Positions 4,581-30,089 are shown, numbered from the stretch's first letter. The stretch: DNA of 64,000 bases from an uncultured Saprospiraceae bacterium (GCA_964646645.1 CAZYHJ010000006.1:4717-68716), one strand, 5' to 3'. Numbers and translations: made by a program. The notes: generated from the sequence alone by a model not told the origin.

Positions 4581-4712
4581 TATGTCCCAAATTTAGTCAG
4601 CAAAAACCTCTTTTTCTTTAATACCTCCTTGTTATTTCTCTTAGCAAATTCGGGACAGTTAACTCATTAATCCTTACAGCAGGTAGCATTTATATGCTTT
4701 GCAGATTAATAC

Positions 4713-4785
4713 TACCTCCTGATTCCTTGCCACTTGCTGATTGCCTATTGCCAATTGCCTATTCCTATCTCCTGATTCCTATTTT
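4713..4785. repeat. word-repeat mosaic (ttgcctattgcc / ctgattcct words)
   Basis: cctcctgattccttgccacttgctgattgcctattgccaattgcctattcctatctcctgattccta; 4761-4781 is identical to 45687-45707. Confidence 0.6.
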
Positions 4786-4815
4786 ACAACTATCCAACTC
4801 AAATCATCATTTATA

Positions 4816-4831
4816 CTGACCCTTGTCATTT
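4816..4831 (+). promoter_or_regulatory. candidate Crp/Fnr-type operator CTGACCCTTGTCATTT (TGAC-N4-GTCA)
   Basis: 15/16 identical to 9658-9673. The -7-like element cATTTTTG at 4852-4859 lies 36 nt downstream, the same spacing as the second copy. Confidence 0.45.
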
Positions 4832-4898
4832 CGCAGATGATAGCTAACCCTCATTTTTGATACGTCAATAAGATTCTTAACCTTTAAATCATAAAGTC

Positions 4899-5342
4899 AT
4901 GTCACTCATCAAATGGAATGATCCAATGAAGCTGATGGGGAAGAGGAACTGGGTTGAGAACTTCTTTGCGGAAACCGATGATTTCCTGAAAAACTGGAAT
5001 TGGGATGTCTCTCAGGATGTTCCGGCCGTCAATGTGAAGGATGAAAAAGATTTCTTCATGATTGATGTGGCTGCTCCGGGAATGAAACGGGAAGATTTCA
5101 AGGTGGAAGTCGACAGAGGAGTTTTGATCATCAGCGCTACTACTGAAGAGAAGAAAGAGGAGAAGACGGAGAACTTTAAACGTCAGGAGTTCAGTTACCG
5201 CAATTTCAAACGTTCTTTCTGGCTGCCGGAAAATATAATGCCCGACAAAATCGAGGCCCATTATGAAGATGGCATCCTGAAATTGAAACTGCCCAAAATG
5301 ATGGAAATACCTGAAAAGGTACAGACGATAAAAGTGGTGTGA
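4899..5342 (+). CDS. Hsp20/alpha-crystallin small heat-shock protein
   Basis: 147 aa with an alpha-crystallin domain (PAVNVKDEKDFFMIDVAAPGMKREDFKVEV...EDGILKLKLPK). Confidence 0.95.
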   Translation: MSLIKWNDPMKLMGKRNWVENFFAETDDFLKNWNWDVSQDVPAVNVKDEKDFFMIDVAAPGMKREDFKVEVDRGVLIISATTEEKKEEKTENFKRQEFSYRNFKRSFWLPENIMPDKIEAHYEDGILKLKLPKMMEIPEKVQTIKVV

Positions 5343-5351
5343 TTTCAAATG

Positions 5352-5382
5352 CCGGGGTTCGGCGACGGGCCCCGGTTTTTTT
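5352..5382 (+). terminator. rho-independent terminator after hsp20
   Basis: ccgggg/ccccgg stem followed by a T7 run (ccggggttcggcgacgggccccggttttttt). Confidence 0.7.
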
Positions 5383-5419
5383 ATTTTAGCACCATTATTC
5401 ACGAATATCAGCATTACTC

Positions 5420-5842
5420 ATGGATACCAGCAGACCCGTTTCCGAGATCATGACAAAGCACCTGGTGACCGTTAAACCGGAAGATACCATTGATCGAATC
5501 CATGATCTCTTTGAAAAACACACCTTTCACCACATTCCGGTGGTGGAGAAGAACAAGCTCGTCGGGATCATCTCCAAAACCGACTATGTAAAAATTCGGC
5601 ACATGTTGGCCACCACCTGGTCCGGGGAGACTATTTGCCAGGATATGTATAAGGATATGTGTGCCGGGGATATCATGTCCCGGGAACCCCTTAAAGTGGA
5701 ACCGGCCGATACGATAGGCCTTGCCGCGGATATATTCCGTGCCAATGCCTTACATGCCCTTCCGGTGGTCGAAGAGGGTGAGCTCGTTGGTATAGTTACC
5801 TCTCATGATTTGCTCAATTACGCATACCAGGGCATGCTCTGA
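5420..5842 (+). CDS. CBS-pair domain protein
   Basis: 140 aa, two CBS motifs (HHIPVVEKNKLVGIISKTD; HALPVVEEGELVGIVTSHDLL). Confidence 0.85.
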   Translation: MDTSRPVSEIMTKHLVTVKPEDTIDRIHDLFEKHTFHHIPVVEKNKLVGIISKTDYVKIRHMLATTWSGETICQDMYKDMCAGDIMSREPLKVEPADTIGLAADIFRANALHALPVVEEGELVGIVTSHDLLNYAYQGML

Positions 5843-5890
5843 TTTGCGTTATGCTTATAGTGATTTTCTGATTTATAAATTTTGCTCGTC

Positions 5891-6337
5891 ATGGACAAAT
5901 GGATAGCTGTCAAGCATATTATGACCACTGACCTGGTGACTGCCGATCCGGATGAAGTGCTGGATTCCGTTAAGCACAAGTTGATCTCCAATCACATCCA
6001 GCATATTCCGGTCGTCGAAGGGAAGAAAATACTGGGCATCATCAGTATCAGCGATATGCGACGGATGGAGCATCACTTTACCTTATTTAAATCTGAAAAG
6101 GCTTTGGAAAGCAATCGACAGATTTTTTCCACGATTCTGGCTTCAGAAGTGATGACCAAATCATTGGTCAAGTTGAAGGACACAGACACGGCGTCCATTG
6201 CCGTGGACCTCTTTCGGGAGAATTTGTTCCATGCCCTTCCGGTCGTCAATGACAAAGATCACCTGGTCGGGATGATCACTCCGCTGGATCTGTTAAAATA
6301 TGCCTTTGATGAAAAACCTCCATTAGAGGAAAGTTGA
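5891..6337 (+). CDS. CBS-pair domain protein
   Basis: Two CBS motifs (QHIPVVEGKKILGIISISD; HALPVVNDKDHLVGMITPLDLL). First ATG is at 5891; the listed 5882 start is TTG. Confidence 0.85.
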   Translation: MDKWIAVKHIMTTDLVTADPDEVLDSVKHKLISNHIQHIPVVEGKKILGIISISDMRRMEHHFTLFKSEKALESNRQIFSTILASEVMTKSLVKLKDTDTASIAVDLFRENLFHALPVVNDKDHLVGMITPLDLLKYAFDEKPPLEES

Positions 6338-6349
6338 AAATCAAGTGCT

Positions 6350-7183
6350 ATGAAGATCCTGTTCCCCACTGATTTTTCTACAACGGCAGAAAATGCCTTT
6401 ACCTACGCGATCAAGCTTGCCGACCGTCTCAAAGCTTCCATTACCGTGGTGCATGTCTACGAGTTGCTTCAGTTGCATACCTGGATAGAAGGGGCCACCA
6501 ATATGAACGATCTCAATGAAAAAGTCACCATTGGTGAGTTTGAACATTTCAGGGAACAGATTGACACGTTGAAACGAATAGCCCGCGAAAATCAACTGGA
6601 GCATATTGAAGTAGATTATGTGTTGAAGGAATCAGATTATGTCATTGAAGCCATACAACAGGAAGCAATGACCAACGGAGCGGATTTGATTGTGATGGGG
6701 ACCAAAGGCGCCAGAGGATTAAAGGAAATCTTTTTTGGAAGTGTGGCCACTAAGGTCATGGAGACAGCCCCTTGCCCTGTATTTGTAGTACCTGAAACGG
6801 CCCATTTTAAAGGCATACAGAAAATCGGGCTAACGCTGGAATATAAGCCGGTGGAATATGACCTGATTGAAAAGGCGCTGAGGCTGACCCGTCGGTTGGG
6901 CGGTCACCTGCATTGTGTTCATATTGACAATTATGACGATGAACAGAAGCGATTAGCCTTCCAGGATTACCGGAAGACGTTTGAAGCGGAGCAGGATATA
7001 AGTTTTCACATCCATCACGATCCTGATACGGAAAAGGGAATACTGGATTTCATGAAATTTAATCAGATGGATGTCATTGTGATGTATGTTCATCCCCAGT
7101 CGTTGCTGAAGGATATTTTTTCCTTTAGTATTGCCAAGCGGGTAGCCTATCACAGCGATATTCCCATCCTGGGAATTCATTAA
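6350..7183 (+). CDS. tandem universal stress protein (2x UspA domain)
   Basis: 277 aa. KILFPTDFS...ITVVHV, GADLIVMGTKGARGLKEIFFGSVATKVMETAPCPVFVVP, and a second Usp half ending in DIPILGIH. Confidence 0.9.
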   Translation: MKILFPTDFSTTAENAFTYAIKLADRLKASITVVHVYELLQLHTWIEGATNMNDLNEKVTIGEFEHFREQIDTLKRIARENQLEHIEVDYVLKESDYVIEAIQQEAMTNGADLIVMGTKGARGLKEIFFGSVATKVMETAPCPVFVVPETAHFKGIQKIGLTLEYKPVEYDLIEKALRLTRRLGGHLHCVHIDNYDDEQKRLAFQDYRKTFEAEQDISFHIHHDPDTEKGILDFMKFNQMDVIVMYVHPQSLLKDIFSFSIAKRVAYHSDIPILGIH

Positions 7184-7190
7184 AAACACG

Positions 7191-7233
7191 TAGGGACAGG
7201 TAGGGATATGTAGGGGCAGGTCGCGACCTGCCC
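7191..7233. repeat. decamer word repeat (tagggacagg) ending in a 20-nt perfect palindrome
   Basis: tagggacagg tagggatatg taggggcagg; gggcaggtcg|cgacctgccc at 7214-7233. Confidence 0.6.
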
Positions 7234-7251
7234 TTGTGAAATTTTGATAAT

Positions 7252-7295
7252 AAAAATCGGTAGGGACAGGTCGCGACCTGTCCCTACCGATTTTT
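7252..7295. terminator. 44-nt perfect palindrome; likely bidirectional terminator between convergent usp and response-regulator genes
   Basis: aaaaatcggtagggacaggtcg|cgacctgtccctaccgattttt: a GC-rich stem flanked by A5/T5, ending 2 nt from the regulator stop codon. Confidence 0.75.
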
Positions 7296-7296
7296 A

Positions 7297-8322
7297 TCAA
7301 TTGTGGATGATGATATCCGATCCCTGGATGGATACCAATCCTTCTTCTTTAAATTCCGAAAGGCAGCGGATAATGGTTTCTTTGGCTGTGCCGGCCATAC
7401 TGGCCAGATCTTCGCGAGCGACCGGGATGACCGCGGTGCCATTTTCAAGGTAAAATGCGTGGAGGTCCACGAGGGTAGCGGCCAGTTTCATCCGCACAGA
7501 GCCGAAGGCCTGAAGCAGGAGTTTTTCATCCGCCTGAAGTTGGTTATTGGCCATTTCCTGGAGAAAATAATACGCGATGGAAGGATGATGCAAGACGAAT
7601 GAGATAAAATCATCCCGCTTGATCGGAATCAACTCAAGGTCCTCAAAAGCCTTTACCGTTTCCTGGTATTTGGTGCCTGAGAAGGCAGAGGATACACCAA
7701 CGATCATCGGGTACTGATATAGCCGGGTCACCACTTCTTTTGCGTAGTTGTCAATTTTAGTAGCGATCGCCCTTCCGGATTTTATGGCAAAAACAAAACG
7801 ACAGGTTTGACCTTCGGCAAACAGCAGATCCTTTTTCCTGACCATCCTTGTTTCACTATCCAGGAGGGATTCCGGAAGAGTCTGCATCACTTGTTCTGCG
7901 GTAGGCAGGTTGACTATGGAAGCAGCGACTCCGGCATGTCCCTGATGCGATCTGTGCTTATTTAGTCTGAATTCAATTGTGTTGAGTAACTCAACATCAT
8001 CAAAGGGTTTGGTGATATAATCATCTGCCCCCAATGTCATGCCCCGTCTGACATCAGTCAATTCGGTCTTAGCGGTAAGGAATAAAAATGGGATCATTGC
8101 CGTGGCTTCATTTTTGGACAGAATCCGGAGCACGGTATATCCATCCATTTCCGGCATCATGATATCACAGAGGATCAGATCCGGTACATGTGCAACAGCT
8201 GCTTCCACCCCTAATTTACCATTAGGGGCTGTAACAGTTTCGTATCCGGAGAGCGTCAACAATTCGCTCAGATTTTCTCTGACGTCATTGTTGTCTTCGA
8301 TGACCAGGATTTTATTTTTCAT
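7297..8322 (-). CDS. response regulator with REC domain fused to Crp/Fnr-type effector domain and HTH
   Basis: REC: KILVIEDN, DLILCDIMMPEMDG, KPF. C-terminal cNMP-binding-like barrel plus HTH REDLASMAGTAKETIIRCLSEFKEEGLV. Start taken at MKNKILVIEDN, overlapping the kinase stop by 11 nt. Confidence 0.9.
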   Translation of the reverse strand: MKNKILVIEDNNDVRENLSELLTLSGYETVTAPNGKLGVEAAVAHVPDLILCDIMMPEMDGYTVLRILSKNEATAMIPFLFLTAKTELTDVRRGMTLGADDYITKPFDDVELLNTIEFRLNKHRSHQGHAGVAASIVNLPTAEQVMQTLPESLLDSETRMVRKKDLLFAEGQTCRFVFAIKSGRAIATKIDNYAKEVVTRLYQYPMIVGVSSAFSGTKYQETVKAFEDLELIPIKRDDFISFVLHHPSIAYYFLQEMANNQLQADEKLLLQAFGSVRMKLAATLVDLHAFYLENGTAVIPVAREDLASMAGTAKETIIRCLSEFKEEGLVSIQGSDIIIHN

Positions 8323-9649
8323 AGCTAAGTGGTAGGGTGATATAAAAGGTGGTGCCTTTGCCTTGTTCACTTTCGAACCTGAGCGTGCCCTTCAGGGTGT
8401 GAAGATAGGATAAGACGATATTTAAACCCAAACCGGTTCCTGGAACGTTCACGGCATTTGAAGCTCTGAAAAATCTGGAGCCGATATGTTTCTGGTCCTC
8501 CGGGGGTATGCCCATGCCTTCGTCCGCGATGATCATCTGGAGGAGGCCCTCTTCAATGAAAATGGTGCATCTGACCTTAGTCCCTGCTTCCGAGTACTTG
8601 ATGGCATTGGAAATCAAATTATAGAGAATATTCCGGAGGATGTTTTTATCGGTTTTCATCTCCAGATCATCAAAATCGTGATGGCAGAGAAACTGCTGTT
8701 GTTGCTTCAATAGCCCGTCTACATCGGCTTTAAGCTCAGAGAGAAGTCCATGGACAGAAAAGGTGCTTATGACCGGTACAAATTGACCTTCTTCCAACCG
8801 GGTGATCGAAAGAAAGTCCATGAGAATATTGTTGAGATGGGAGACACTTGATTTTATACGCTCCACGTGACGATTGCGGTCGGCGTCCTGTTCGGTAGTC
8901 GTGTATTTGGATATCAGTGCGGCAGAAGAAAGGATACTTGCGAGCGGTGTCTTAAACTCATGAGAGGCCATGGACACAAATCTCGATTTGAGCGAACTCA
9001 ACTCCTTCTCCTTTTCCAGGGATTTATGCAGTTCATCCCTTGCCGCCACCAGGGCGGTTTCATAAATTTTATGCTTTTCAATCGACTCATTGAGTTGTCG
9101 GTTAGTATCCAGGAGCAAGTTGACCGTATCCTGTAGTTCTGTTGTACGTTCGATGACCAACTGCTCAAGCTCATGATTTAATTTGATGATTTCATCCTGC
9201 ACTTTTTTCATAGGCGTGAGATCCTGCAGGATGCCTGTGAAAAAGTGGTTTTGATCGACGATGATTTCGCTTACCGCCAACCGGACCGGAAACAGGGTGC
9301 CGTTTTTTCTCCGGCCTTCGACTTCGCGGCCGATTCCAATGATCTGTTTATGACCAGTCGAGAGATAATTTTCCAGGTAGTGGTCATGGCCTTCTCTATG
9401 GGGAGATGGCATGAGCATGGATACATTTTCACCAATTAATTCTTCGATGGAATACCCAAAGAGGTGGGTCACCGCAGAATTAGCCATGTGAATCCTCCCT
9501 CTGGTATCAATGACGATAATACCATCGATTGCCGTTTCCACCACAGATTCAAGGACATGTGCGGAGTTGGCATGGGGAAATGTATAAAAGTCAGACACAG
9601 GGCTAAGATATCCATTGTCTATCGCGCGGGCAATGCTGACTATAATCAA
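8312..9649 (-). CDS. soluble PAS sensor histidine kinase, FixL-like heme-PAS type
   Basis: PAS with LMPSPHREGHDHYL...IIGIGREV...FTGILQDLT. H-box SHEFKTPL, N-box NAIKYS, G-boxes DEGMGI and GTGLGL. The start is TTG (9649) or GTG (9598); there is no ATG upstream of the PAS. Confidence 0.9.
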   Translation of the reverse strand: MIIVSIARAIDNGYLSPVSDFYTFPHANSAHVLESVVETAIDGIIVIDTRGRIHMANSAVTHLFGYSIEELIGENVSMLMPSPHREGHDHYLENYLSTGHKQIIGIGREVEGRRKNGTLFPVRLAVSEIIVDQNHFFTGILQDLTPMKKVQDEIIKLNHELEQLVIERTTELQDTVNLLLDTNRQLNESIEKHKIYETALVAARDELHKSLEKEKELSSLKSRFVSMASHEFKTPLASILSSAALISKYTTTEQDADRNRHVERIKSSVSHLNNILMDFLSITRLEEGQFVPVISTFSVHGLLSELKADVDGLLKQQQQFLCHHDFDDLEMKTDKNILRNILYNLISNAIKYSEAGTKVRCTIFIEEGLLQMIIADEGMGIPPEDQKHIGSRFFRASNAVNVPGTGLGLNIVLSYLHTLKGTLRFESEQGKGTTFYITLPLSYEK

Positions 9650-9657
9650 TTTATTGG

Positions 9658-9673
9658 CTGACCCCTGTCATTT
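9658..9673 (+). promoter_or_regulatory. candidate Crp/Fnr-type operator CTGACCCCTGTCATTT (TGAC-N4-GTCA)
   Basis: Near-identical to 4816-4831. A perfect TAnnTTTG (TACCTTTG, 9694-9701) lies 36 nt downstream. The site is 9 nt upstream of the kinase TTG start on the other strand. Confidence 0.45.
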
Positions 9674-9862
9674 TGACCTTTTATCCTTTCAAATACCTTT
9701 GAGAGGGTGAGTTTTGCATGAGGGGTAAGTATAATGTAATCCCGATTTCCATCGACACCTTGCTTTTTTGGCGCATACGTTTTTTATATTAAAAAATAAT
9801 TAATGCGTTAATAGACAGATTGTCAATCAATTAGATTTTATCACACCAATTTTTATAACACA

Positions 9863-10303
9863 ATGGATTTTACAGCACCTGTTTCAAAATGGATGACCAC
9901 CAAAATGGTCACTGTGGTTCCGGGAGATTCGGTTTCCGTGGTCAAGGATATTTTTGACCAGCAACGGATTCACCATATCCCGGTCGTGAAGTATCGTACC
10001 CTGGTTGGATTGATCAGTAAATCTGATTTTCTCCATTTTCTCAGGGGTATGGAGACCACCCCTTATGACAAGTTGGTTGAAAAAAGCCGGCTTGAGCATT
10101 ATAAGGCAGAAGATATTATGACTACGGGACTGGCGACACTTGAGCCCAATGAAAGGCTTAACGTGGCCCTTCAACTTTTTAGTGAGAACCTTTTTCATGC
10201 CATTCCCATTGTCGAGAAGGAGGAGTTAGTGGGTATCCTCACCACATTTGATATTATCAGAGCATTGGTAGAGGAAGATAATAAACGAATTAAATCAACC
10301 TGA
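9863..10303 (+). CDS. CBS-pair domain protein
   Basis: 146 aa with HHIPVVKYRTLVGLISKSD and HAIPIVEKEELVGILTTFDII. Confidence 0.85.
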   Translation: MDFTAPVSKWMTTKMVTVVPGDSVSVVKDIFDQQRIHHIPVVKYRTLVGLISKSDFLHFLRGMETTPYDKLVEKSRLEHYKAEDIMTTGLATLEPNERLNVALQLFSENLFHAIPIVEKEELVGILTTFDIIRALVEEDNKRIKST

Positions 10304-10307
10304 TTTC

Positions 10308-11423
10308 ATGCAATGCTCTAATGCCATTGAAGCAATGAATATAGAGTTGTATAGTATTCGCGGGTTTACAGGAAGTGCGCTGAAGCAGAAGCTTGAGCGC
10401 GAGTTGGTGGCGCACCATATGCATGTACCGGTGGATGAGATCAACCAGGTCGACCGATTCATCAAAGCTGGGCTGGTGGCTGTTCCTGCATTTAAGATTG
10501 GGGACAAGGTGATCCAGCATCCGCATAATGGAGATGTCGAAGAGACCGTCAGGAATGTAATGGATTATATCCTCGCGGAGCATTTGAACAACATTCTTGT
10601 GCCGGTTGATTTTTCCGAAGGGTCCTTCAATGCCATCGCATTCGCCAGAGCTATTGCGGTCAAAATGGGCTATGGTATAACACTGGTGCATATTCACCAG
10701 ACGCTTTATGATCCCATTTCCGCAGGGGCCCTGGATGTACAATTGCTGAAGGATGTCAATACCCGTCTCCAGCAGTTAGTGGAGGAACTCAGCGTGCAGG
10801 CTATTTCGGATGGGCAAGATATTCATTTCAATGCCCATATGGAAGTAGGGGAGACCTCCAGCAGTCTGATTGAATTGCTGGATCATGGAAAATATGAAAT
10901 GATGGTCATGGCTACCAAATCCACCGATAATGCCATGCGCAGATTTTTTGGAACCGTGTCTTCAGAAGTCAGCCGAAGAAGCCATAAGCCTGTGGTCGTT
11001 ATTCCGCCTCATACTGAAGCGAAGTTTCCCGGAAAGTTAGTCATTGGATTTACCGAAGAACTATTTCATGAAAATGTATTGGATGATATCATTGAATTTG
11101 GCTGCATGAATAATGCTTTTTTTGATTTCATCCATATCACCAATGACCAGCACCATTTTGAGCGTTTGAAGGATAAATTGTACCAGCGGCTCGTGACTAA
11201 GCGCGATTTACTTTGCGGTTTCAATATCAAATGCCTGGAGGGGGATGATGGAAAAGTACATGAGAAGATCTCTCGGTACGCAAATGAAGTACGCGCCGGT
11301 ATGATTGTTCTCGTGACGCATCAGAGAAAGTTCCTGGAAGCATTGAGGCATGAAAGCGTAACCAAAAAGGCCCTTCATCACCCTGAACTTCCGATCCTGA
11401 TTATACACCAGGCAAAAGATTGA
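10308..11423 (+). CDS. tandem universal stress protein with N-terminal thioredoxin-fold-like extension lacking CxxC
   Basis: N-terminal ~90 aa resemble small Thioredoxin_3-type proteins (IELYS...VPAFKIGDKVI) but have RGFTGS where CxxC is expected. Two Usp domains follow (ILVPVDFSEGS..., MMVMATKS..., PILIIH). Alternative start at 10335. Confidence 0.8.
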   Translation: MQCSNAIEAMNIELYSIRGFTGSALKQKLERELVAHHMHVPVDEINQVDRFIKAGLVAVPAFKIGDKVIQHPHNGDVEETVRNVMDYILAEHLNNILVPVDFSEGSFNAIAFARAIAVKMGYGITLVHIHQTLYDPISAGALDVQLLKDVNTRLQQLVEELSVQAISDGQDIHFNAHMEVGETSSSLIELLDHGKYEMMVMATKSTDNAMRRFFGTVSSEVSRRSHKPVVVIPPHTEAKFPGKLVIGFTEELFHENVLDDIIEFGCMNNAFFDFIHITNDQHHFERLKDKLYQRLVTKRDLLCGFNIKCLEGDDGKVHEKISRYANEVRAGMIVLVTHQRKFLEALRHESVTKKALHHPELPILIIHQAKD

Positions 11424-11432
11424 TGCCTTTCA

Positions 11433-13946
11433 TCAGACAGGAGACGAAACGCGTTTTATTGCTTTGACCGCTTCAAACCAAAATACTGAAAGGGCCGCTA
11501 CGCCTGTACAAATCAGGATGTCCTTCCAGTGTGGGGTAGCCAGTTGGAAAAAAGCAGTGATGGGCTTGAAATAGAGCATGGAGCTCAGGATCAGTAGGGT
11601 CAGCCCGATAATTCCGTAAAGTAATTTATTGTTGTAGCGCAGCGTAGTCAGAAAGGAGTAATAAAACGATCTGTTGACAAGCGTCAGGAATATATTAGAG
11701 ATGATCAGCGTAGAGAAAACCATCGTTCTTACATAGGTTTCCGTACCACCTCTCCACAGTGAAAACTGGTATATAGCCAGCACGCCTGCTGTAATCATTA
11801 AGCCTTGCAATATGCTCATGCCCAGTTCTCTGAAGTTGAGAAATGTCTCTGTCATACGACGCGGAGGCTGCTGCATCGTATTGGCTTCCATGGGTTCATT
11901 TTCAAATACAATGGAGCAGGTAGGCCCCATGACCAGTTCAAGAAAGATCACATGTACCGGCGTGAAAATATCAGGGTAAACCCATCCCAAAAAAAGTGGA
12001 AGGGATACCGTAAGGATAATCGGAATATGGATCGAGATGATGTATTGGATCGCCTTCTTGAGATTGGCATAAATTCGTCTGCCGGTGGCAATTGCTGATA
12101 CCAGTTTGCCGAGATCGTCGTTCAGGATAATAAGGGCGGCCGCGTTTTTAGCCATTTCGGTTCCCTTTTGCCCCATGGCGATTCCTATATGCGATGATTT
12201 TAGCGCAGGACCGTCGTTGACTCCATCCCCCAACATCGCCACGATTTGCTGATCTTGTTTCAGCGCATTTACAGCGGCGAGTTTGGCTTCAGGATACATG
12301 CGGGTAAACAATGCTTTTTCGGCGACGGTCCTCACAAAGGCAGACTCATCCATCCTCATGAGTTCCTCCCCATCTACGGCTTCACCTGTATTTTTAAGTC
12401 CCGCTTTTAACGCAATCGCTTTTGTAGTCTCCGCGTTGTCACCGGTGATGATCTTGACCTTGATGCCTGCTTCCTCAAATTGCCTGAATACATTTTCAAT
12501 CCCTGTTTTGGGGGGATCATAAAAGATAACAAGCCCAATAAAGGAAAAATTAAAATCACGCTGGTCATCGGGAAATTCATGGCCACTATATTCAGCCCTG
12601 GCTACCCCTAACATCCTGTATCCCTTTGCGGCAAGTGATTGTAACGTGTCAATGATTTTACTCCGTTGTGCGGGAGATAATCCACAGGCTTGAAGGATGG
12701 CTTCCGGGGCGCCTTTGGAGGCAATGATTCTGCGTCCTGCCTTGTCCTCAAAAATATGGGTCATCATAGGCGGTTGACCACCCAGCGGATATTCATGCGC
12801 CATGGTGAAATCATCCCGCTGATCTTCGCTGATATACATTTCGTATGCCTGATGGATCGACTTTTCCATCGGATCAAATGGATTTGGTTCGCTTGCCCAC
12901 ATGGCTGCCTCTATGACGTTCATGCCTTTGTTGGCGAAGGCATCAACTTCCATGATCAGGTGGTCATGTTCAAAATCATATACCCCGATGAGGCTCATCC
13001 TGTTCTCGGTAATGGTACCTGTCTTATCCGAGCAAATGACGGTAGCGCTCCCTAAAGTTTCCACCGTTCTTGTTTTCTTGACGATGACTCCATCTTTCAT
13101 CAGACGACGTGAACCAAGCGCCATAAACGTCGTAAAGGCTACGGGGATTTCTTCAGGCAAAATGGACATGGCCATGGTGAGGCCTTTGAGCAGGCTTGCG
13201 AGGATATTTTTACTTTCGGCAAACTGTACGGCCCACACCATGAGAAAAACCAGGATCCCCACAAGCGCCATTTTTTTGACAAACGATTCTATTTGTTGTT
13301 GCAGTGGGGTGGGTTCTTCCCGTATCTCCACCATCGACTTTCCGATCTGGCCGATACGTGTTGAGCTGCCTGTTTTATCCACCTGATATACAGCCAATCC
13401 GGAAGAGGCTAATGTCCCACTGTATACCCGTGGGTCCGAACTTGATGTTGATTTGAAAATAGCCTGCGCCTCACCGGTCAGAGCGGACTCATTGACCGAA
13501 AAATCATTGGAATGGACGATCACACCATCCGCATTAATCGTTGCACCCTCTTCTGCCAGGACAAGATCACCCGGAACGATTTCGGTGGTCAGAATATGCT
13601 GCGGCTCTCCATTGCGAATGACTTTGCTCAGCGGTGTATTCAATGCTTCCAGCGCCTCCAGCGCCTTCCGGCTGCGATTGTCCTGATAGAAAGAGATGCC
13701 GGAGACAATCAATATCGCAGCCAGCATGAAATAGGCCTCTCCCAACTGTCCCATCCAGATATAGATCAACGCGATAGCCAGCAATAGCAGCAACATCGGT
13801 TCACGCATGATCTCAAAAAGCACGTGCCACCAAGTACGTTTTGCTTTCTGATGTTGAATGTTCAGCCCGTATTGTTTTCTCAATGACAAGACTTCCGCAT
13901 CTGAAAGACCGGTGAGATGAGAAGGAATGTTGAGCCGGGTGGACAT
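11433..13946 (-). CDS. cation-transporting P-type ATPase (P2-type, Ca2+-ATPase-like)
   Basis: 837 aa: DKTGTITEN phosphorylation site, TGDN, GDGVNDGPALK hinge, PEEIPV in TM4, Cation_ATPase_N-like start. Confidence 0.95.
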   Translation of the reverse strand: MSTRLNIPSHLTGLSDAEVLSLRKQYGLNIQHQKAKRTWWHVLFEIMREPMLLLLLAIALIYIWMGQLGEAYFMLAAILIVSGISFYQDNRSRKALEALEALNTPLSKVIRNGEPQHILTTEIVPGDLVLAEEGATINADGVIVHSNDFSVNESALTGEAQAIFKSTSSSDPRVYSGTLASSGLAVYQVDKTGSSTRIGQIGKSMVEIREEPTPLQQQIESFVKKMALVGILVFLMVWAVQFAESKNILASLLKGLTMAMSILPEEIPVAFTTFMALGSRRLMKDGVIVKKTRTVETLGSATVICSDKTGTITENRMSLIGVYDFEHDHLIMEVDAFANKGMNVIEAAMWASEPNPFDPMEKSIHQAYEMYISEDQRDDFTMAHEYPLGGQPPMMTHIFEDKAGRRIIASKGAPEAILQACGLSPAQRSKIIDTLQSLAAKGYRMLGVARAEYSGHEFPDDQRDFNFSFIGLVIFYDPPKTGIENVFRQFEEAGIKVKIITGDNAETTKAIALKAGLKNTGEAVDGEELMRMDESAFVRTVAEKALFTRMYPEAKLAAVNALKQDQQIVAMLGDGVNDGPALKSSHIGIAMGQKGTEMAKNAAALIILNDDLGKLVSAIATGRRIYANLKKAIQYIISIHIPIILTVSLPLFLGWVYPDIFTPVHVIFLELVMGPTCSIVFENEPMEANTMQQPPRRMTETFLNFRELGMSILQGLMITAGVLAIYQFSLWRGGTETYVRTMVFSTLIISNIFLTLVNRSFYYSFLTTLRYNNKLLYGIIGLTLLILSSMLYFKPITAFFQLATPHWKDILICTGVAALSVFWFEAVKAIKRVSSPV

Positions 13947-13948
13947 AG

Positions 13949-14141
13949 CGTGAATGGTGAGTTGTGAGTTGTGAATTGTCAGTTGTGAGTGGTCAATGCG
14001 TTGTGTTAACTATGAAGTCCCCTTCAGGCGTCGTGCTGAGCGGAGTCGAAGTAGGATTTAGGGGCCAAAGTATCGTGAGTTGTGAGCAGTGAAACTTGAG
14101 TCGTAATTCGTAATTACTAATTCGTAATTACTAATTCGTAA
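13949..14141. repeat. mosaic of heptamer word repeats filling the SulP-ATPase intergenic region
   Basis: (gtgagtt/gtgaatt/gtcagtt)n at 13949-13994; the gaagtcccctt...ggatttaggggcc element at 14024-14065; (tcgtaat/tactaat)x6 at 14101-14142 abutting the SulP stop. Confidence 0.8.
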
Positions 14142-14144
14142 TTT

Positions 14145-15716
14145 TTAATGTAATTCAATCGTCTCTACCTCTGGTATATTAATCATCTTCAGTTGAATAT
14201 GTTTACGATGTGCTTTGGATTTAAAGTCGTGGAAAATTTCAAGAATATCCTGGTCAATATAAACACTGTCTGCTCCATTGATTTCCACAACAGCATATTC
14301 GGGGATCTTGTCCAGCATTTCCATGATCCTTTTTTTATTGATAAAGCTCACATTGAGGGCCAGTTCGATGACATAATGCTTCATGTGGCCATCATGCTTT
14401 TCCTTGATGACATAACCGGCCTTGATCGTGTTCTTTATCAGGAAGTACACGGCATAGGTGATACCAATCAGTACGCCAATGAGAAGATCGGTAGCCAGAA
14501 TCGCAATGACGGTGACTAAGAAAGGAATAAACTGTTCGCGTCCTTGTTTATAGATGGCTTTGATCATCGAGGGTTTGGCTAGGTTGTATCCGGTACGCAC
14601 CAGGATGACCGCCAGTACACAATATGGAATCAGATTAATGAGTGGGATCGCAACGACTATGGCCAGCAACAACCATATACCGTGCATAAATGCTGAAAGC
14701 CTTGTCCTGGCACCAGCTTCAGCATTGGCTGAACTTCTCACAATCACCGCGGTAATAGGGAGTCCGCCTAATAATCCACTCAGAAAATTACCGGTGCCCT
14801 GGGCAACGAGTTCGCGATTTTGTGGCGTGATCCTGTTTAGTGGATCGAGTTTGTCGACCGCCGTGATGCTGAGCAAGGTCTCCAGTGACGCCACAAAGCA
14901 AATGACCACCGCATTTTGCCAGATCAGTCCATTACTAAAGATTTGATTGAAGTCTGCCGGTTTGATCTGACGAAGTATATCATGAGGAATATTGACGAAT
15001 TGCGATGGCTTGATCTGTGTAGTTGTAAATAATTGATTAAATGCAATGGCCAGGAGAATCCCCGAAAGCACCGTAATGAAGGAGGTGGGCAGAAAACTGA
15101 TTTTTGCGGCGATGTACTTTTTCCAGAGAATCAGGATCAGTAAGGTCATAACAGAGATCGTAACAGCTCCTGTCGAAGTATGGTGATATAAACTTCCAAT
15201 GCCGTGAAATCCGTTTTTGAAGGTGATCAGATTAAAAATTTCATTGGTCCAGAAATCTGGTTGGTCATACCCCACAAGTAGGGGGATCTGTTTGGAGATG
15301 AGGATAATCCCGATCGCGGTCAGCACGCCTTTGATGACGGCCGATGGAATGAAATGGGTAAAACCACCTAATCTGAAGATGCCGAGTAATACCTGTAAGA
15401 GTCCGGCAACAGCCACTGAAACAAAGAAGATTTCTATTGCGCCTAATTCGGTAATCGCAGTCGCGCATATCGCCGTAAGGCCAGCCGCAGGTCCGCTGAC
15501 ACTGAGTTCTGATTTGCTGATCAGTGAGATGATGATTCCACCAATGATACCCGCCAGAATACCTGAATACACCGGAGTACCCGATGCCAGCGATACACCC
15601 AAACAAAGTGGAAGGGCAACGAAGAAAACCGTGATACTGGCCTTAAAGTCATGACGACTGAAGGTAAGCCAATAGTATCGAATCTTTCGTGGATTCCAGA
15701 TCCTGGCAAAATCCAT
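14145..15716 (-). CDS. SulP family anion transporter with C-terminal STAS domain
   Basis: 523 aa, multi-TM Sulfate_transp-like core (LPLCLGVSLASG, VAQGTGNFLSGLLGGLPIT) plus a soluble C-terminal STAS-like domain. Confidence 0.88.
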   Translation of the reverse strand: MDFARIWNPRKIRYYWLTFSRHDFKASITVFFVALPLCLGVSLASGTPVYSGILAGIIGGIIISLISKSELSVSGPAAGLTAICATAITELGAIEIFFVSVAVAGLLQVLLGIFRLGGFTHFIPSAVIKGVLTAIGIILISKQIPLLVGYDQPDFWTNEIFNLITFKNGFHGIGSLYHHTSTGAVTISVMTLLILILWKKYIAAKISFLPTSFITVLSGILLAIAFNQLFTTTQIKPSQFVNIPHDILRQIKPADFNQIFSNGLIWQNAVVICFVASLETLLSITAVDKLDPLNRITPQNRELVAQGTGNFLSGLLGGLPITAVIVRSSANAEAGARTRLSAFMHGIWLLLAIVVAIPLINLIPYCVLAVILVRTGYNLAKPSMIKAIYKQGREQFIPFLVTVIAILATDLLIGVLIGITYAVYFLIKNTIKAGYVIKEKHDGHMKHYVIELALNVSFINKKRIMEMLDKIPEYAVVEINGADSVYIDQDILEIFHDFKSKAHRKHIQLKMINIPEVETIELH

Positions 15717-15721
15717 AGAAT

Positions 15722-16117
15722 CTATGTTTTAGCATGTTTGTACAAATAAAGGCCAATCAGGAATAAAGCTACACCAATACTTCCATAGAGCAGCTGGAGA
15801 TAGGAGTACTGCCGGATCATCAGCATCTGTACCAGGATCCATCCTGATAAGATGATGCCTTCTGCAAGGATCAGCCATGTATAATGCTTCCAACGAAGAG
15901 CGGTCCAAACCAGCGCCACGATGGACAATATACCATTGAAGGTGAACAGGATAATGCCTGGGATCAGAAAATCTTTAAACGGACTGTGTTCAAGAAAGGT
16001 GACCGGCATTTGAAGGTCACTGCCTGTAGGATCCATGATCAGGCTCCAGCCTCCAAATATTGCACTTACGCCATTAAAAAGTAAGAGTATCAATGCAAGA
16101 ACGTTAAGTGTTTTCAT
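15722..16117 (-). CDS. membrane protein (4 TM), unknown function
   Basis: 131-aa hydrophobic ORF, 5 nt upstream of the SulP start; likely co-transcribed. Confidence 0.5.
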   Translation of the reverse strand: MKTLNVLALILLLFNGVSAIFGGWSLIMDPTGSDLQMPVTFLEHSPFKDFLIPGIILFTFNGILSIVALVWTALRWKHYTWLILAEGIILSGWILVQMLMIRQYSYLQLLYGSIGVALFLIGLYLYKHAKT

Positions 16118-16165
16118 GATTCAAGTGTTGAAAATAAGAAAATGATCTTGCTCTTGTAATTGCTA

Positions 16166-16846
16166 TCAGGCATTCCATTTTCTCGATTTAAGAAAAATGG
16201 CTAGCATCAACATGATCATCCAGATATTCCAAAAGAGATAGAGTCCCATACCTGTCGATGTCAGCACCCAACCCGGTTCCAGTATTGTCCATATCGGACT
16301 GATCATACTGATGAGCCCATTCCCAATCATCAACCACTTAATGAAGTTGCTTTTATTTTGATAAAAAGTTGCTCCAGCCCATGTCGCCCATCCCAGAAAG
16401 CAATATCCCCACATTTCATTGGCCCAACAAAAGGATTCAGGATTGGCCATGGATAACCCTGCAATCAGGCTTTCATATTCTGGCCGAAAGTCTTCCACCA
16501 GATTTGGAATAAAACTAATTTGACAAACATAATTGAATGCAATCAACCCCAGAAATACGATAGTCAGGGCAAGGGAAATGACCATTGAAGGTCTGATTTG
16601 TTTTGTGGAAGTAAAATCATAGGATAAATGACCCACAGCCAGTAGTAGCATTCCTGCAAGAATGAGAAATCCAAGATAGTAGGGAAGGGACTGGATTGGA
16701 TGATAATAGGTAATGTATTGAGAAACCGTCAGCCAATCAGGTTGTGGATGAGTGATCAAGACTATTGACACTGCCATTGGGCCAGAGCAAAAAAATCCAA
16801 TCAAACTAATAAGCGCCCCTGCCCTAATCATTTTTAAAGCTTTCAT
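16166..16846 (-). CDS. membrane protein (multi-TM), unknown function
   Basis: Hydrophobic ORF. First ATG (MKALKMIRAG) is at 16846; the listed start at 16888 is TTG. Confidence 0.5.
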   Translation of the reverse strand: MKALKMIRAGALISLIGFFCSGPMAVSIVLITHPQPDWLTVSQYITYYHPIQSLPYYLGFLILAGMLLLAVGHLSYDFTSTKQIRPSMVISLALTIVFLGLIAFNYVCQISFIPNLVEDFRPEYESLIAGLSMANPESFCWANEMWGYCFLGWATWAGATFYQNKSNFIKWLMIGNGLISMISPIWTILEPGWVLTSTGMGLYLFWNIWMIMLMLAIFLKSRKWNA

Positions 16847-16971
16847 TCGCACTGGTAGTTTAATCAAAGCCAATGGCAATTTAACCAACTACTGCATTAA
16901 AATTCAATTCCCGCTGAACGATAAAACCAATTTCTGCTGTCAAGTTTAATCTTAATCTAAAATAAAATATC

Positions 16972-17005
16972 TGATATCCGTCACCAGATAAGATGACAAT
17001 AGTCA
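16972..17005. promoter_or_regulatory. pair of TGA-N6-TCA palindromes (TGATatccGTCA, TGACaataGTCA), 22 bp centre to centre
   Basis: Read directly. The minus-strand -7-like element TAAACTTG (16941-16948) is 29.5 bp from the proximal box centre, as at hsp20 and cbs. Confidence 0.3.
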
Positions 17006-18784: not shown

Positions 18785-19660
18785 CTATCCTATCCTGACT
18801 GAGGTCATGGATATGGAGCCCATGATCGTCCGGTCATTGAAAAAGGATAGACGGTCCTCTTCATCTTTCAAGCCGAGGGTATAGAGCAGGGGAAGGTAGT
18901 GCTCCGGTGTGGGGATAGAAAGTTGAAATGCCTTACCCTGACCGGAGTAATTGATCAATGATTTTACATCACCTTTATTGATCATGGTCTTAAATCCTTC
19001 ATTGGCTTCGATGGCCCAATCATAGCCTGTGTCCTGGTGTTGCCAGTCGACCATGCCGAGATTGTGTACCATATTTCCACTGCCAATGATTAAAATCCCT
19101 TTATGTCGAAGGAGATTGAGTTCTTTAGCTAATTCATAATGATATTGTGGACCTTTCGTGTAGTCGAGGCTGAGTTGCAGTACAGGTACATCCGCATTCG
19201 GATACAAGTGCTTTACGACACTCCAGCAACCGTGGTCCAGACCCCATTGCTGATCGAGACCCACTTCGGTTGTGGTGATTGTGGCTTTTGTCTGCATCGC
19301 AATCGCCGGACTACCAGGTGCCGGGTATTGAACATCGAAGAGTTCTTGAGGAAATCCTCCAAAATCATGTATGGTTTTGGGCTTGTCCATGGCCGTGACC
19401 CATGTTCCTTTAGTTTCCCAGTGTGCGGAGACGCAAAGTATCGCCGTTGGACGAGGTAAGGATTTTCCGATATCACGCCACCCTCGGGAAAACTCAGTTT
19501 CCTGAATGGCATTCATAGGACTCCCGTGACCCAGGAAAAGGACAGGCATCTTCACGGAAGACTCCAGTGAAGTTGACATTTTGGATAGATGGCTTAGTTG
19601 CATGGCGGTACCAGCTATAGGTAAGAGGGCAAGCGATTGTAAAAACTTTTTTCTGTCCAT
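18785..19660 (-). CDS. class III extradiol dioxygenase (YgiD / 4,5-DOPA dioxygenase-like) with N-terminal export-like extension
   Basis: MPVLFLGHGSPMNA motif and LigB-family length. A ~37-aa N-terminal extension MDRKKFLQSLALLPIAGTAMQ precedes it. Confidence 0.85.
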   Translation of the reverse strand: MDRKKFLQSLALLPIAGTAMQLSHLSKMSTSLESSVKMPVLFLGHGSPMNAIQETEFSRGWRDIGKSLPRPTAILCVSAHWETKGTWVTAMDKPKTIHDFGGFPQELFDVQYPAPGSPAIAMQTKATITTTEVGLDQQWGLDHGCWSVVKHLYPNADVPVLQLSLDYTKGPQYHYELAKELNLLRHKGILIIGSGNMVHNLGMVDWQHQDTGYDWAIEANEGFKTMINKGDVKSLINYSGQGKAFQLSIPTPEHYLPLLYTLGLKDEEDRLSFFNDRTIMGSISMTSVRIG

Positions 19661-25089: not shown

Positions 25090-25824
25090 TCATATATCCT
25101 CAGTAAGTAAAAGTGCTAATAATCCACTCACGTCCATGATCTGGATATGCCGGCCTTTAATCTGCACGAGATCTTTACCTTTCAAGCCATGAAGCGATCT
25201 GACTATGGTTTCCAATGAAGCCCCTACATATTCTGAAAGTTCTGTCCTTGTGATCGTAATTTCTCCGTTCACCGAGCCCGATAGCCTGTATTGTTCATGG
25301 AGAATAAGTAATGCAAGCACTAACCTGTGGCGAACCGGAAACTTTGTAAAAATGGTCATTCGATTCATCCAAACGGTAAAGTCTCGAGCCAAGGCCAAAA
25401 GCAGTCCCTGGACAAAAGCAGGTGAAACTTCCATTAATTTTTTAAAGCTGATAGCGGGAATCAGGATGACCTCCGCATCTTCGAGTAGAACTGCAGAAAC
25501 CGGATGTAGCTCTTCGGCAATCAGTTGCCTGAACCCTATTAAATCGCCATTGGAATAGATATATAGTGTCTGTCGTTGACCACCAGGCGTCTCTTGCAGG
25601 ATTTTAACTTTCCCGCTGATCAGCCACACGACTTGCCTTGGAATGGTTCCTTGTTTGAACAACCATTCTCCACGCTTGAGTTTTTTGAGTTTGCCATGTT
25701 GTCTTAGCCAATCCTTGTCACTAAGGGGTAGTTTGTCCATCCATTCCTGGTTTCGGAACAGATAAGGCGAAATGATTTTAGTCAAAGCGACATCCTGATC
25801 CCTCATCCAGTCAAACGTAACCAT
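25090..25824 (-). CDS. Crp/Fnr family transcriptional regulator
   Basis: cNMP-binding-like barrel (GEWLFKQG...GDLIG) and C-terminal HTH (RTELSEYVGASLETIVRSLHGLKGKDLV). Confidence 0.8.
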   Translation of the reverse strand: MVTFDWMRDQDVALTKIISPYLFRNQEWMDKLPLSDKDWLRQHGKLKKLKRGEWLFKQGTIPRQVVWLISGKVKILQETPGGQRQTLYIYSNGDLIGFRQLIAEELHPVSAVLLEDAEVILIPAISFKKLMEVSPAFVQGLLLALARDFTVWMNRMTIFTKFPVRHRLVLALLILHEQYRLSGSVNGEITITRTELSEYVGASLETIVRSLHGLKGKDLVQIKGRHIQIMDVSGLLALLLTEDI

Positions 25825-27346: not shown

Positions 27347-27847
27347 TCAATAGGATTTCGGTTTGTCTATGGCTTTGAATTGGTCCGCGTAATACTGGTA
27401 CAGGTCGGGATGGGTTTTAGCCATTTTAGCCAGGAAACTAATCCTTGCTTTTTGCAGTGTATTGATTTGCGTCTGCAGGGAGAGCATTTTTACAGAGAGC
27501 AGACTATCCTGATGTCCGGCTTGTTGAACAAACGATTGTACTTCGGGTGGAAGTGATGTATAGGACATGAACATTTGAATGTGGTCAGCATTGCGGGCCT
27601 CGAGCAGCAGTTTCCTGTCGATCGATGGGAAATCAGACGGAAGTAATTGGTTCAGGGTAAAAGAGGTGGTATCCCAAAGGCTATCCGTCATCATGCTGAG
27701 ACGATTAAGATCGGTCTGGAGTTGCAAGGTTGATGTAATTAGGAGGTCCCCTTCTTCTTTCACATTGTTTTCCTGGCCACACGATATGCATATCAAAGCG
27801 ATAGGGTAGAGTAGGAAGAGTTGAAAGAGGAAAACTAGAAACTTCAT
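27347..27847 (-). CDS. putative lipoprotein, unknown function
   Basis: Signal peptide plus Cys (LICISCGQ); 29 nt upstream of the haloperoxidase-like gene. Confidence 0.5.
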   Translation of the reverse strand: MKFLVFLFQLFLLYPIALICISCGQENNVKEEGDLLITSTLQLQTDLNRLSMMTDSLWDTTSFTLNQLLPSDFPSIDRKLLLEARNADHIQMFMSYTSLPPEVQSFVQQAGHQDSLLSVKMLSLQTQINTLQKARISFLAKMAKTHPDLYQYYADQFKAIDKPKSY

Positions 27848-27920
27848 AGGCCTTCGGTGCTGAATAGGAGGAATTCCTCACATCAATTCCGAATGCAAAT
27901 TTTGAAGTCCCTGGGAAATC

Positions 27921-27944
27921 AAAGTTTGATATACATCAAACTTT
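27921..27944. promoter_or_regulatory. 24-nt perfect palindrome containing a consensus FNR/Crp-family box TTGAT-atac-ATCAA
   Basis: aaagtttgat-atac-atcaaacttt, 85 nt upstream of the lipoprotein/haloperoxidase operon start. Confidence 0.55.
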
Positions 27945-29904: not shown

Positions 29905-30089
29905 CGGAATAATATTTTATTAAAGTTCATCCCGGGCACTCAAAATCCCTATGATGTCAATCATTTGCCTGTGTGAGGTCAGTCATATGAAATTTATTAG
30001 TATTTCATTTGGTTTATGATACTATAGATGGGTGCTTTATCATCCAGTATGGAGGGATGTGTATGCATCTCAATTTTATACAACGAACA

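Follow-up and report, generated by a model that had tools for sequence, protein, structure and literature searches.

The described systems closest to the one considered here are built around a haem-based sensor kinase, a protein of the Crp/Fnr family, or both. In the FixL-FixJ-FixK cascade of rhizobia, Caulobacter and Burkholderia, a FixL-type haem-PAS sensor kinase is followed by FixJ, a receiver (REC) domain with a LuxR-type helix-turn-helix (HTH), and by FixK, which has a Crp/Fnr-type HTH; the box TTGA(T/C)-N4-(A/G)TCAA, a TGA-N6-TCA palindrome centred at about -41.5, precedes fixNOQP (ccoNOQP). FNR and Anr are [4Fe-4S] one-component oxygen sensors that use the box TTGAT-N4-ATCAA in the class II position. 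In the present study, a stretch of DNA of 64,000 nucleotides (nt) from an uncultured Saprospiraceae bacterium (GCA_964646645.1 CAZYHJ010000006.1:4717-68716), referred to below as the window, was analysed. It carries two 16-mers, CTGACCCTTGTCATTT (4816-4831) and CTGACCCCTGTCATTT (9658-9673), which are identical in 15/16 positions. Each of these 16-mers is probably the promoter-proximal box of a tandem operator at which a Crp/Fnr-family activator binds, the likeliest binder being the REC-cNMP-HTH_Crp regulator encoded between them.

The DosR regulon, controlled by DosS/DosT-DosR in mycobacteria, includes genes for alpha-crystallin/Hsp20, multiple universal stress proteins (USPs), CBS-domain proteins and a cation P-type ATPase; the Lxa locus of Burkholderia cenocepacia offers a similar set around a haem-kinase two-component system. 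The overlap of the DosR- and Lxa-type regulons has been reviewed, and USP-rich hypoxia regulons have been described under FixLJ-FixK, Anr or DosRS in Burkholderia, Pseudomonas and mycobacteria (PMC12071387). In CRP class III promoters and tandem-site FNR promoters, two dimers are bound upstream of the core promoter, both on one face of the DNA: the first is at -41.5, the second further up. In Flavobacterium psychrophilum, the cbb3 oxidase is strongly induced under oxygen limitation, the regulator being left unnamed (PMC9723704). The literature searched names no regulator for the low-oxygen response of environmental Bacteroidota, and no described REC-Crp/Fnr regulator or FixL-like system was found in this phylum, which does not prove absence. 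A study of the wastewater CRP/FNR meta-regulon treats the Saprospiraceae homologues as MalR-like, leaving the present system unmentioned (PMC8510549), and a review of the CRP family does not mention receiver fusions (PMC10187061).

The system of the window resembles FixL-FixJ-FixK in its FixL-type haem-PAS sensor kinase, its Crp/Fnr-type HTH, the palindrome and its position, the targets (cbb3 oxidase and stress genes) and autoregulation in many lineages. It differs in that the receiver is fused to the Crp/Fnr module, the operators are tandem and 22 base pairs (bp) apart, the promoters are of the Bacteroidota -7/-33 type and not -10/-35, and the kinase is no NCBIfam FixL equivalog. Because of the fusion, one protein replaces FixJ plus FixK and the cascade is one step shorter. 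With FNR and Anr the system has in common the geometry and class II position of the box, the recognition-helix Glu and Arg, and targets among USP and high-affinity oxidase genes; however, the regulator lacks an N-terminal Cys cluster, its input would be phosphorylation of the receiver, and the flanking T/A of the box are weakly kept. Since there is no Cys cluster, the system is not FNR, and since the output is Crp-type rather than LuxR-type, it is not FixJ. In gene content the parallel to the DosR and Lxa sets is striking. DosR, however, is a NarL/LuxR-type regulator with another palindrome of 18-20 bp, and its kinases have GAF and not PAS haem domains, so the relation to DosR/Lxa is a functional analogy, not homology of regulator or operator. 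The 22-bp spacing, near-universal here, is an occasional variant among CRP class III and tandem FNR promoters. The system may be described as a fused one-step variant of FixL-FixJ-FixK/FNR-like control, with tandem operators on Bacteroidota promoters.

The boxes and promoter elements of the window are as follows.
4795-4806, plus strand: distal box of the hsp20 promoter, CAACTCAAATCA, found by the tandem scan, 6/8 defined positions, predicted centre -63.5
4817-4828, plus strand: proximal box of the hsp20 promoter, TGACCCTTGTCA, core of the first 16-mer, predicted centre -41.5
4852-4859, plus strand: -7 variant of the hsp20 promoter, CATTTTTG (CAnnTTTG, 5/6), 35 nt past the box start, predicted transcription start about 4864
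9603-9610, minus strand: kinase-side -7-like element, TATCTTAG, 38 nt from the box at 9648-9637
9637-9648, plus strand: distal box of the CBS-Usp promoter, TGACTATAATCA, predicted centre -63.5, also the nearest box to the kinase promoter
9659-9670, plus strand: proximal box of the CBS-Usp promoter, TGACCCCTGTCA, core of the second 16-mer, predicted centre -41.5
9694-9701, plus strand: -7 element of the CBS-Usp promoter, TACCTTTG (perfect TAnnTTTG, 6/6), predicted start about 9706
17005-16994, minus strand: distal box of the third promoter, TGACTATTGTCA, noted initially as a third copy of the palindrome
16983-16972, minus strand: proximal box of the third promoter, TGACGGATATCA, from the scans for box, spacing and -7 geometry
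16948-16941, minus strand: -7 element of the third promoter, TAAACTTG (5/6), 35 nt past the proximal box, predicted start about 16936
27927-27938, minus strand (region 27896-27940): single box with the full FNR consensus TTGATGTATATCAA including flanks, with AAAATTTG at offset 35

More than 576 relatives of the regulator were found in Bacteroidota by a scan of one genome per species. The comparative set consisted of 80 loci (1.26 Mb, 16% of the DNA being intergenic), each selected only for its REC-fused Crp/Fnr regulator and sampled from Saprospiraceae, Pedobacter, Mucilaginibacter, Ekhidna, Cyclobacteriaceae, Flavobacterium, Chryseobacterium and others; the regulators show 40 to 82% identity across the loci, which are not near-identical strains. 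All palindromic 4-mer dyads with spacings of 0-10 were scanned with no prior assumption (2587 tests). The dyad TGAT-N4-ATCA ranked first for intergenic enrichment (97 intergenic and 71 coding occurrences, p 2e-34) and TGAC-N4-GTCA second (36 and 11, p 8e-20), and the shifted dyads ATGA-N6-TCAT and CTGA-N6-TCAG were likewise high-ranking. The initial annotation had read the 16-mers as FNR/CRP-type palindromes and had asked whether the motif is as frequent in coding DNA as in promoters; the first point agrees with the top two dyads, and the enrichment answers the second in the negative. The consensus is TGAY-N4-RTCA, in which the TGA-N6-TCA core of the FNR/FixK-type box is present. The outer flanks of the FNR box are weakly kept (T 0.47 and A 0.28 at position -1, no preference at +12); the 16-mers of the window carry C at -1, and the full TTGAT...ATCAA stands only at box 27927.

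Anchoring on the 993 TAnnTTTG sites of the 80 loci gives 28 copies of TGAY-N4-RTCA with their start at -35 and 39 with their start at -57, and about one at each of the other offsets. The fixed distance between box and -7 element, proposed earlier from the two 16-mers, is confirmed by these peaks; the offset of 35 is counted from the T of TGAC and equals the earlier 36, counted from the preceding base. In F. psychrophilum, genome-wide mapping of transcription starts places TAnnTTTG at -12 to -5 (PMC9723704), so that box starts 35 and 57 nt before the -7 element give predicted centres of -41.5 and -63.5. The predicted proximal centre is consistent with the class II position suggested previously, and the predicted starts at 4864 and 9706 are close to the former estimates of about 4866 and 9708; the third start is predicted at 16936 on the minus strand.

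The boxes also come in pairs. At a centre-to-centre spacing of 22 bp there are 145 box pairs, found in 72/80 loci, against 8-32 at the other spacings from 16 to 34 bp. When promoters were picked by a perfect proximal box alone (35 training promoters), the distal T, G and A stood at 0.88 each, and T.A at 0.88 and 0.85. Since 22 bp corresponds to two helical turns, both boxes lie on the same DNA face. A frequent pattern is a perfect distal box with a proximal box that is merely a half-site, as in the Pedobacter ccoNO promoters, and this suggests that binding to the tandem boxes is obligately cooperative. Across the 35 training promoters, no conserved -33 element was found beside the box (<=0.31 bits at +12 to +15).

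The coordinates of the two 16-mers, their 15/16 identity and the distance of 36 nt from the first base of each to its own -7 motif, cATTTTTG at 4852-4859 and TACCTTTG at 9694-9701, were all reproduced. The sites noted initially are real, but for each of them a tandem partner 22 bp away had been overlooked, as had the degeneracy of the motif: the pairs start at 4795 (weak) and 4817, at 9637 and 9659, and at 16972 and 16994. Compared with the -7 element of Bacteroidota sigma-A promoters, TACCTTTG matches in 6/6 positions and CATTTTTG and TAAACTTG in 5/6, and they are conserved in relatives. The window contains 4 cases of a box with a -7 element of >=5/6 at offset 35, where Markov-resampled sequence yields 0.06-0.11; the fourth case is the single box TTGATGTATATCAA at 27927.

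The perfect palindrome TGACNNNNGTCA (TGAC-N4-GTCA) occurs 8 times in the window, at 4817, 8049, 9659, 11675, 16994, 18796, 26110 and 35451, against 0.83 expected, and 0/100 dinucleotide shuffles gave as many as 8. The earlier count of three perfect copies, all intergenic, does not hold, five copies (8049, 11675, 18796, 26110 and 35451) being situated within open reading frames (ORFs), namely the regulator, P-type ATPase, LigB-like (3' end), PAP2 and ABC permease genes. At offset 34-36 all five lack a -7 element; without promoter geometry they were rejected as operators and treated as non-functional or chance copies. The copies at 8049, 11675, 26110 and 35451 lie deep within coding sequence, and five ORF copies against about one expected constitute a mild unexplained excess. 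At 18796, the box centre is about 97 nt upstream of the start of a TPR gene, but the correctly spaced -7 element is absent. A position weight matrix (PWM) for the single box was also discarded as a stand-alone predictor, as it gave 31 hits of >=10 bits in the window against 7 in shuffles, many of them coding. Specificity comes only from the tandem spacing together with the -7 geometry.

In alignments of close relatives, the spacers and the leader vary, and the boxes and -7 elements are mainly constant. The alignment of the hsp20 promoter with the relatives L001, L004, L005 and L006 keeps TGA....GTCAT.T unchanged, and 5 relatives share an invariant CA..TTTG at the offset seen in the window; the right half of the distal box, ATCA, is kept in L001, whose box is TGTCATAGATCA (7/8). 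In the relatives without hsp20 (n=3), CBS is directly driven by the same promoter. In the CBS/kinase intergenic region of the window and five Saprospiraceae relatives, the invariant columns are mainly those of both boxes (TGA..A..ATCAAT in the distal one, the proximal one likewise invariant), of TACCTTT in the -7 element and of AAGATAT on the kinase side. At the third promoter, TAAACTTG is present at the same offset in L001. Because the spacers vary among species, the 15/16 identity within the genome exceeds the functional consensus of about 8-11 positions; the palindrome core of the 16-mer remains a functional candidate, and the full identity overstates what is conserved. The TTT at the 3' end of the 16-mers is particular to the clade and overlaps the would-be position of the -33 TTTG; in the window, TTTG (9672-9675) and TTTC overlap the 3' ends of the 16-mers.

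Three protein-coding genes bear on the binder and the signal.
7297-8322, minus strand: regulator of 341 amino acids with REC, cNMP-binding-like and Crp-type HTH domains (Pfam)
8312-9598, minus strand: soluble PAS-HisKA-HATPase histidine kinase with a FixL-type haem-PAS domain (Pfam), overlapping the regulator gene by 11 nt
25090-25824: classical one-component Crp/Fnr gene with cNMP_binding and HTH_Crp_2, recognition helix LETIVR with the same Glu and Arg

The regulator belongs to the Crp/Fnr family by its domain matches (PF00027 5e-10, PF13545 2.6e-13) and to the response regulators by its receiver domain (PF00072 1.5e-27), and its comparison with Crp/Fnr chains of the PDB gave E-values down to 6.6e-11. 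The receiver residues Asp/Asp/Thr/Lys (IED, LILCDIMMPE, FLTAK, TKPF) are conserved in >=90% of 78 orthologues, and the same is true of the Glu and Arg of the recognition helix E-T-x-I-R, which, from alignment to CRP-family structures, we take to correspond to the DNA-contacting residues of CRP and FNR. At the N-terminus, the place of an FNR-type cysteine cluster is occupied by the receiver domain, and there are three dispersed Cys only. The combination of REC with a LuxR/GerE-type HTH, characteristic of FixJ, was not found either, the output being cNMP-binding plus HTH_Crp_2, and the NCBIfam FixJ match is confined to the receiver domain (64.9 bits, cut-off 255). The closest relative is encoded in the Saprospiraceae metagenome-assembled genome Candidatus Opimibacter skivensis (82% amino-acid identity).

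The tandem boxes cluster directly upstream of the kinase/regulator operon and directly downstream of the regulator gene: in the 42 loci with full flanks, 32 composites were counted within 2 kb upstream of the regulator gene and 20 within 1 kb downstream of it, compared with 0-7 per kb in the rest. In Saprospiraceae loci that have no adjacent kinase, the boxes stand directly upstream of the orphan regulator gene. The assignment of the boxes to the REC-Crp/Fnr protein, made at the outset, gains from this clustering and from the conserved Glu and Arg of its helix; it has a possible alternative in the second Crp/Fnr gene, and we infer the binder from these features. Over the 80 loci, the genes downstream of boxes are mainly those of the kinase (48 box-gene pairs), CBS (38), the regulator (21), Usp (19), 2-hydroxyacid dehydrogenase (2-Hacid_dh, 18) and the CcoN/FixO cbb3 oxidase (13), with fewer pairs for Hsp20, P-type ATPases, PEP-utilising enzymes, BON, OsmC and ATP-cone proteins. 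In other genera, the boxes precede cbb3 oxidase genes.

The kinase, in which no membrane segment was seen, likely starts at GTG 9598, as judged by alignment with L001. Its PAS domain matches the haem domains of FixL (1d06, E 1.4e-29; 1dp6, 5.6e-27). In the alignment, GHD stands opposite EHD/RHD, which holds the proximal His, and IIGIGR, with the distal Arg, is identical, so that the equivalents of BjFixL His200 and Arg220 are present. It is likely that the kinase is a haem-PAS oxygen sensor. The FixL-type PAS domain, the cbb3, Usp, CBS and Hsp20 genes behind the boxes and the literature on hypoxia together make low oxygen the most likely signal.

The start codon of the kinase lies 5 nt past TATCTTAG, which suggests that the kinase-regulator mRNA is leaderless, as seems likely. 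Both the kinase start (window 9596-9610) and the orphan regulator starts in other Saprospiraceae are placed 5-7 nt after a -7 element; such orphan-regulator loci are L013, L014, L023, L032, L044, L048, L055-L057 and L065, near 9980-10001 or an equivalent position. This implies leaderless or near-leaderless mRNAs for the window kinase and the orphan regulators.

The proposed mechanism would run as follows. As oxygen falls, the soluble haem-PAS kinase would become active in its deoxy-haem form and would phosphorylate the regulator on its receiver. The tandem boxes, on the same face of the DNA, would next be filled cooperatively by two regulator dimers, and the proximal dimer at -41.5 would recruit RNA polymerase in the class II fashion at promoters that have no conserved -33 element. 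In the window, the regulon switched on would comprise hsp20-CBS-CBS-Usp, CBS-Usp and hypothetical-SulP(-P-type ATPase); in other Bacteroidota, the kinase/regulator operon itself, the cbb3 oxidase (ccoNO) and 2-hydroxyacid dehydrogenase genes would also be driven. The motif, the 22-bp spacing, the phasing to the -7 element, the conservation and the association with these genes are observed directly; the binder, activation rather than repression, cooperativity and oxygen as the signal are what the arrangement points to.

Crp/Fnr paralogues are well known to have overlapping specificity, and the boxes might be bound mainly by another member of the family, for example the classical protein of 25090-25824, or be shared by paralogues, as in the pairs Anr/Dnr and FnrN/FixK. 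FixK/NnrR cascades have been described (PMC6710368). The second gene of the window with cNMP_binding and HTH_Crp_2 has the same Glu and Arg in its helix, and the box with the full FNR consensus is only about 2 kb away from it. However, nothing links this paralogue to the tandem sites, and the loci were chosen only for the REC-fused regulator, and in 72/80 of them tandem boxes are clustered beside its gene or the kinase operon; this rival is unlikely. Repression is less probable still, that is, a regulator acting as a repressor or anti-activator that would block the -33 region and leave it once the signal arrives. Repression from overlapping sites is known for some Crp/Fnr proteins; here the proximal box overlaps the would-be -33 position, and the 16-mers end in TTT(T/C)G, which resembles the -33 TTTG. 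Against this, the lack of a conserved -33 element near the box in relatives is typical of activator-dependent promoters, the -41.5/-63.5 phasing and the same-face spacing of 22 bp match the geometry of activation, and in the systems studied so far, FNR/FixK targets, ccoNO for example, are activated.

As for the 15/16 identity, it could be due to chance or be the leftover of a promoter duplicated together with the CBS-Usp pair, with no operator function: both downstream operons hold CBS and Usp paralogues, and the spacers CCCT and CCTT are alike though the consensus leaves them free. But the two regions have no similarity outside the box, distal-box and -7 positions, and the same half-sites recur with different spacers in six Saprospiraceae genomes, at the orthologous promoters, and also at analogous ones of Pedobacter, Ekhidna, Flavobacterium and Cyclobacteriaceae. 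The number of box and -7 combinations in the window is likewise far above the chance expectation given above (4 against 0.06-0.11). Such an origin is hardly credible, the comparative data having effectively refuted it.

Several points weigh against tandem operators of an oxygen-responsive REC-Crp/Fnr activator. The 80 loci come from related species, so that the counts depend in part on one another; as a single box the motif is weak, with its many PWM hits in coding DNA, and 5/8 perfect copies of TGAC-N4-GTCA in the window sit within ORFs. The hsp20 promoter has a distal box of only 6/8 and a non-canonical CAnnTTTG element. The kinase-side -7-like element stands at offset 38 and not 35, which leaves autoregulation of the kinase/regulator operon uncertain in this clade; the kinase promoter of Pedobacter has the canonical offset of 34-36. 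The second Crp/Fnr protein, with its similar E--VR helix, could share or own the boxes. The kinase scores 155.3 bits against the cut-off of 850 for the NCBIfam FixL equivalog NF041777, and in our reading of the alignment the equivalent of BjFixL Arg206 is Asn, so that haem binding is not certain. The mechanism as a whole is, moreover, deduced from sequence.

The part of the window between 4.8 and 17 kb is a compact stress island (Pfam), the whole of which is syntenic in six Saprospiraceae genomes. The genes behind the three tandem promoters are the following.
4899-7183, plus strand: target operon 1, with hsp20 (4899-5342), two CBS-pair genes (5420-5842 and 5882-6337) and tandem-Usp (6350-7183); Pfam, synteny in L001-L006
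9863-11423, plus strand: target operon 2, with CBS (9863-10303) and Usp (10308-11423); Pfam
11433-16888, minus strand: genes of the third promoter, with hyp240 (16166-16888), hyp131 (15722-16117), SulP (14145-15716) and possibly the P-type ATPase (11433-13946), a predicted extent

The P-type ATPase gene is separated from SulP by a gap of 198 nt, and the order hyp131-SulP-ATPase is conserved in L001. The product of hyp240 (240 amino acids) has no Pfam or NCBIfam match and no homologue in any of the 80 loci, and in L001 the third promoter is about 150 nt upstream of the hyp131 homologue; the hyp240 ORF may be a lineage-specific insertion or not a gene. The leader of the CBS-Usp operon is about 155 nt long and is not conserved among relatives. 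No Rfam match was found in the whole window, so this leader is not a known riboswitch. In the relatives without hsp20, the CBS operon has a long conserved leader (L004:10780-11000, L005:5324-5545, L006:12001-12246, minus strands), which carries AAAAGTGGTGTGATTTCAATTGCCGGGG...CCCCGGTTTT, a terminator-like hairpin absent from the window; attenuation is suggested by it, or else an unknown cis-regulatory RNA.

Short direct repeats, ctcctgattcc twice and ttgcc[a/t]attgcc, immediately precede the hsp20 operator (window 4700-4790); at the corresponding place L001 carries another one (cctcagcctcc...). At 7190-7300, where the Usp and regulator genes converge, two GC-rich perfect hairpins, GGTAGGGACAGGTCGCGACCTGTCCCTACC and GGGCAGGTCGCGACCTGCCCC, share the core CAGGTCGCGACCTG; they are likely bidirectional terminators or a small repeated element. 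The single box at 27927 is situated upstream of an ORF of 166 amino acids (27347-27847) without a Pfam match, and may be part of the same regulon or of a separate, overlapping or paralogous one. A further tandem pair, TGATGTCAATCA-N10-TGAGGTCAGTCA (8 and 7 of 8), at 29952-29985 (starts 29952/29974), lies between dienelactone-hydrolase-like and PolX-like genes; it has no convincing -7 element at offset 35 in either direction and was kept as a candidate only.

For specialists, an FNR-like box beside a Crp/Fnr gene is to be expected. The receiver fusion, the strict 22-bp tandem design, the DosR-like genes and the phylum-wide spread together make a well-defined and testable regulon, with a sensor, a regulator, an operator of defined geometry and targets that parallel the DosR and Lxa dormancy sets. 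The REC-Crp/Fnr fusion is a case of a two-step cascade shortened via domain fusion, and the promoters are a natural example of how a Crp/Fnr activator can be placed on the unusual -7/-33 promoters of the phylum. Saprospiraceae, Pedobacter, Flavobacterium and Cytophagia dominate activated sludge, soils and waters with fluctuating oxygen. We put at slightly better than even the proposition that aerobic Bacteroidota possess a phylum-wide one-step oxygen pathway, leading from a FixL-like haem kinase through the REC-Crp/Fnr regulator and obligate tandem boxes (-41.5/-63.5) to a DosR/Lxa-like dormancy set of Hsp20, USPs, CBS proteins and ion transporters and to the cbb3 oxidase. If this is true, the sigma-A promoters of Bacteroidota would have their first defined hypoxia regulon and their first class II-type activator architecture.

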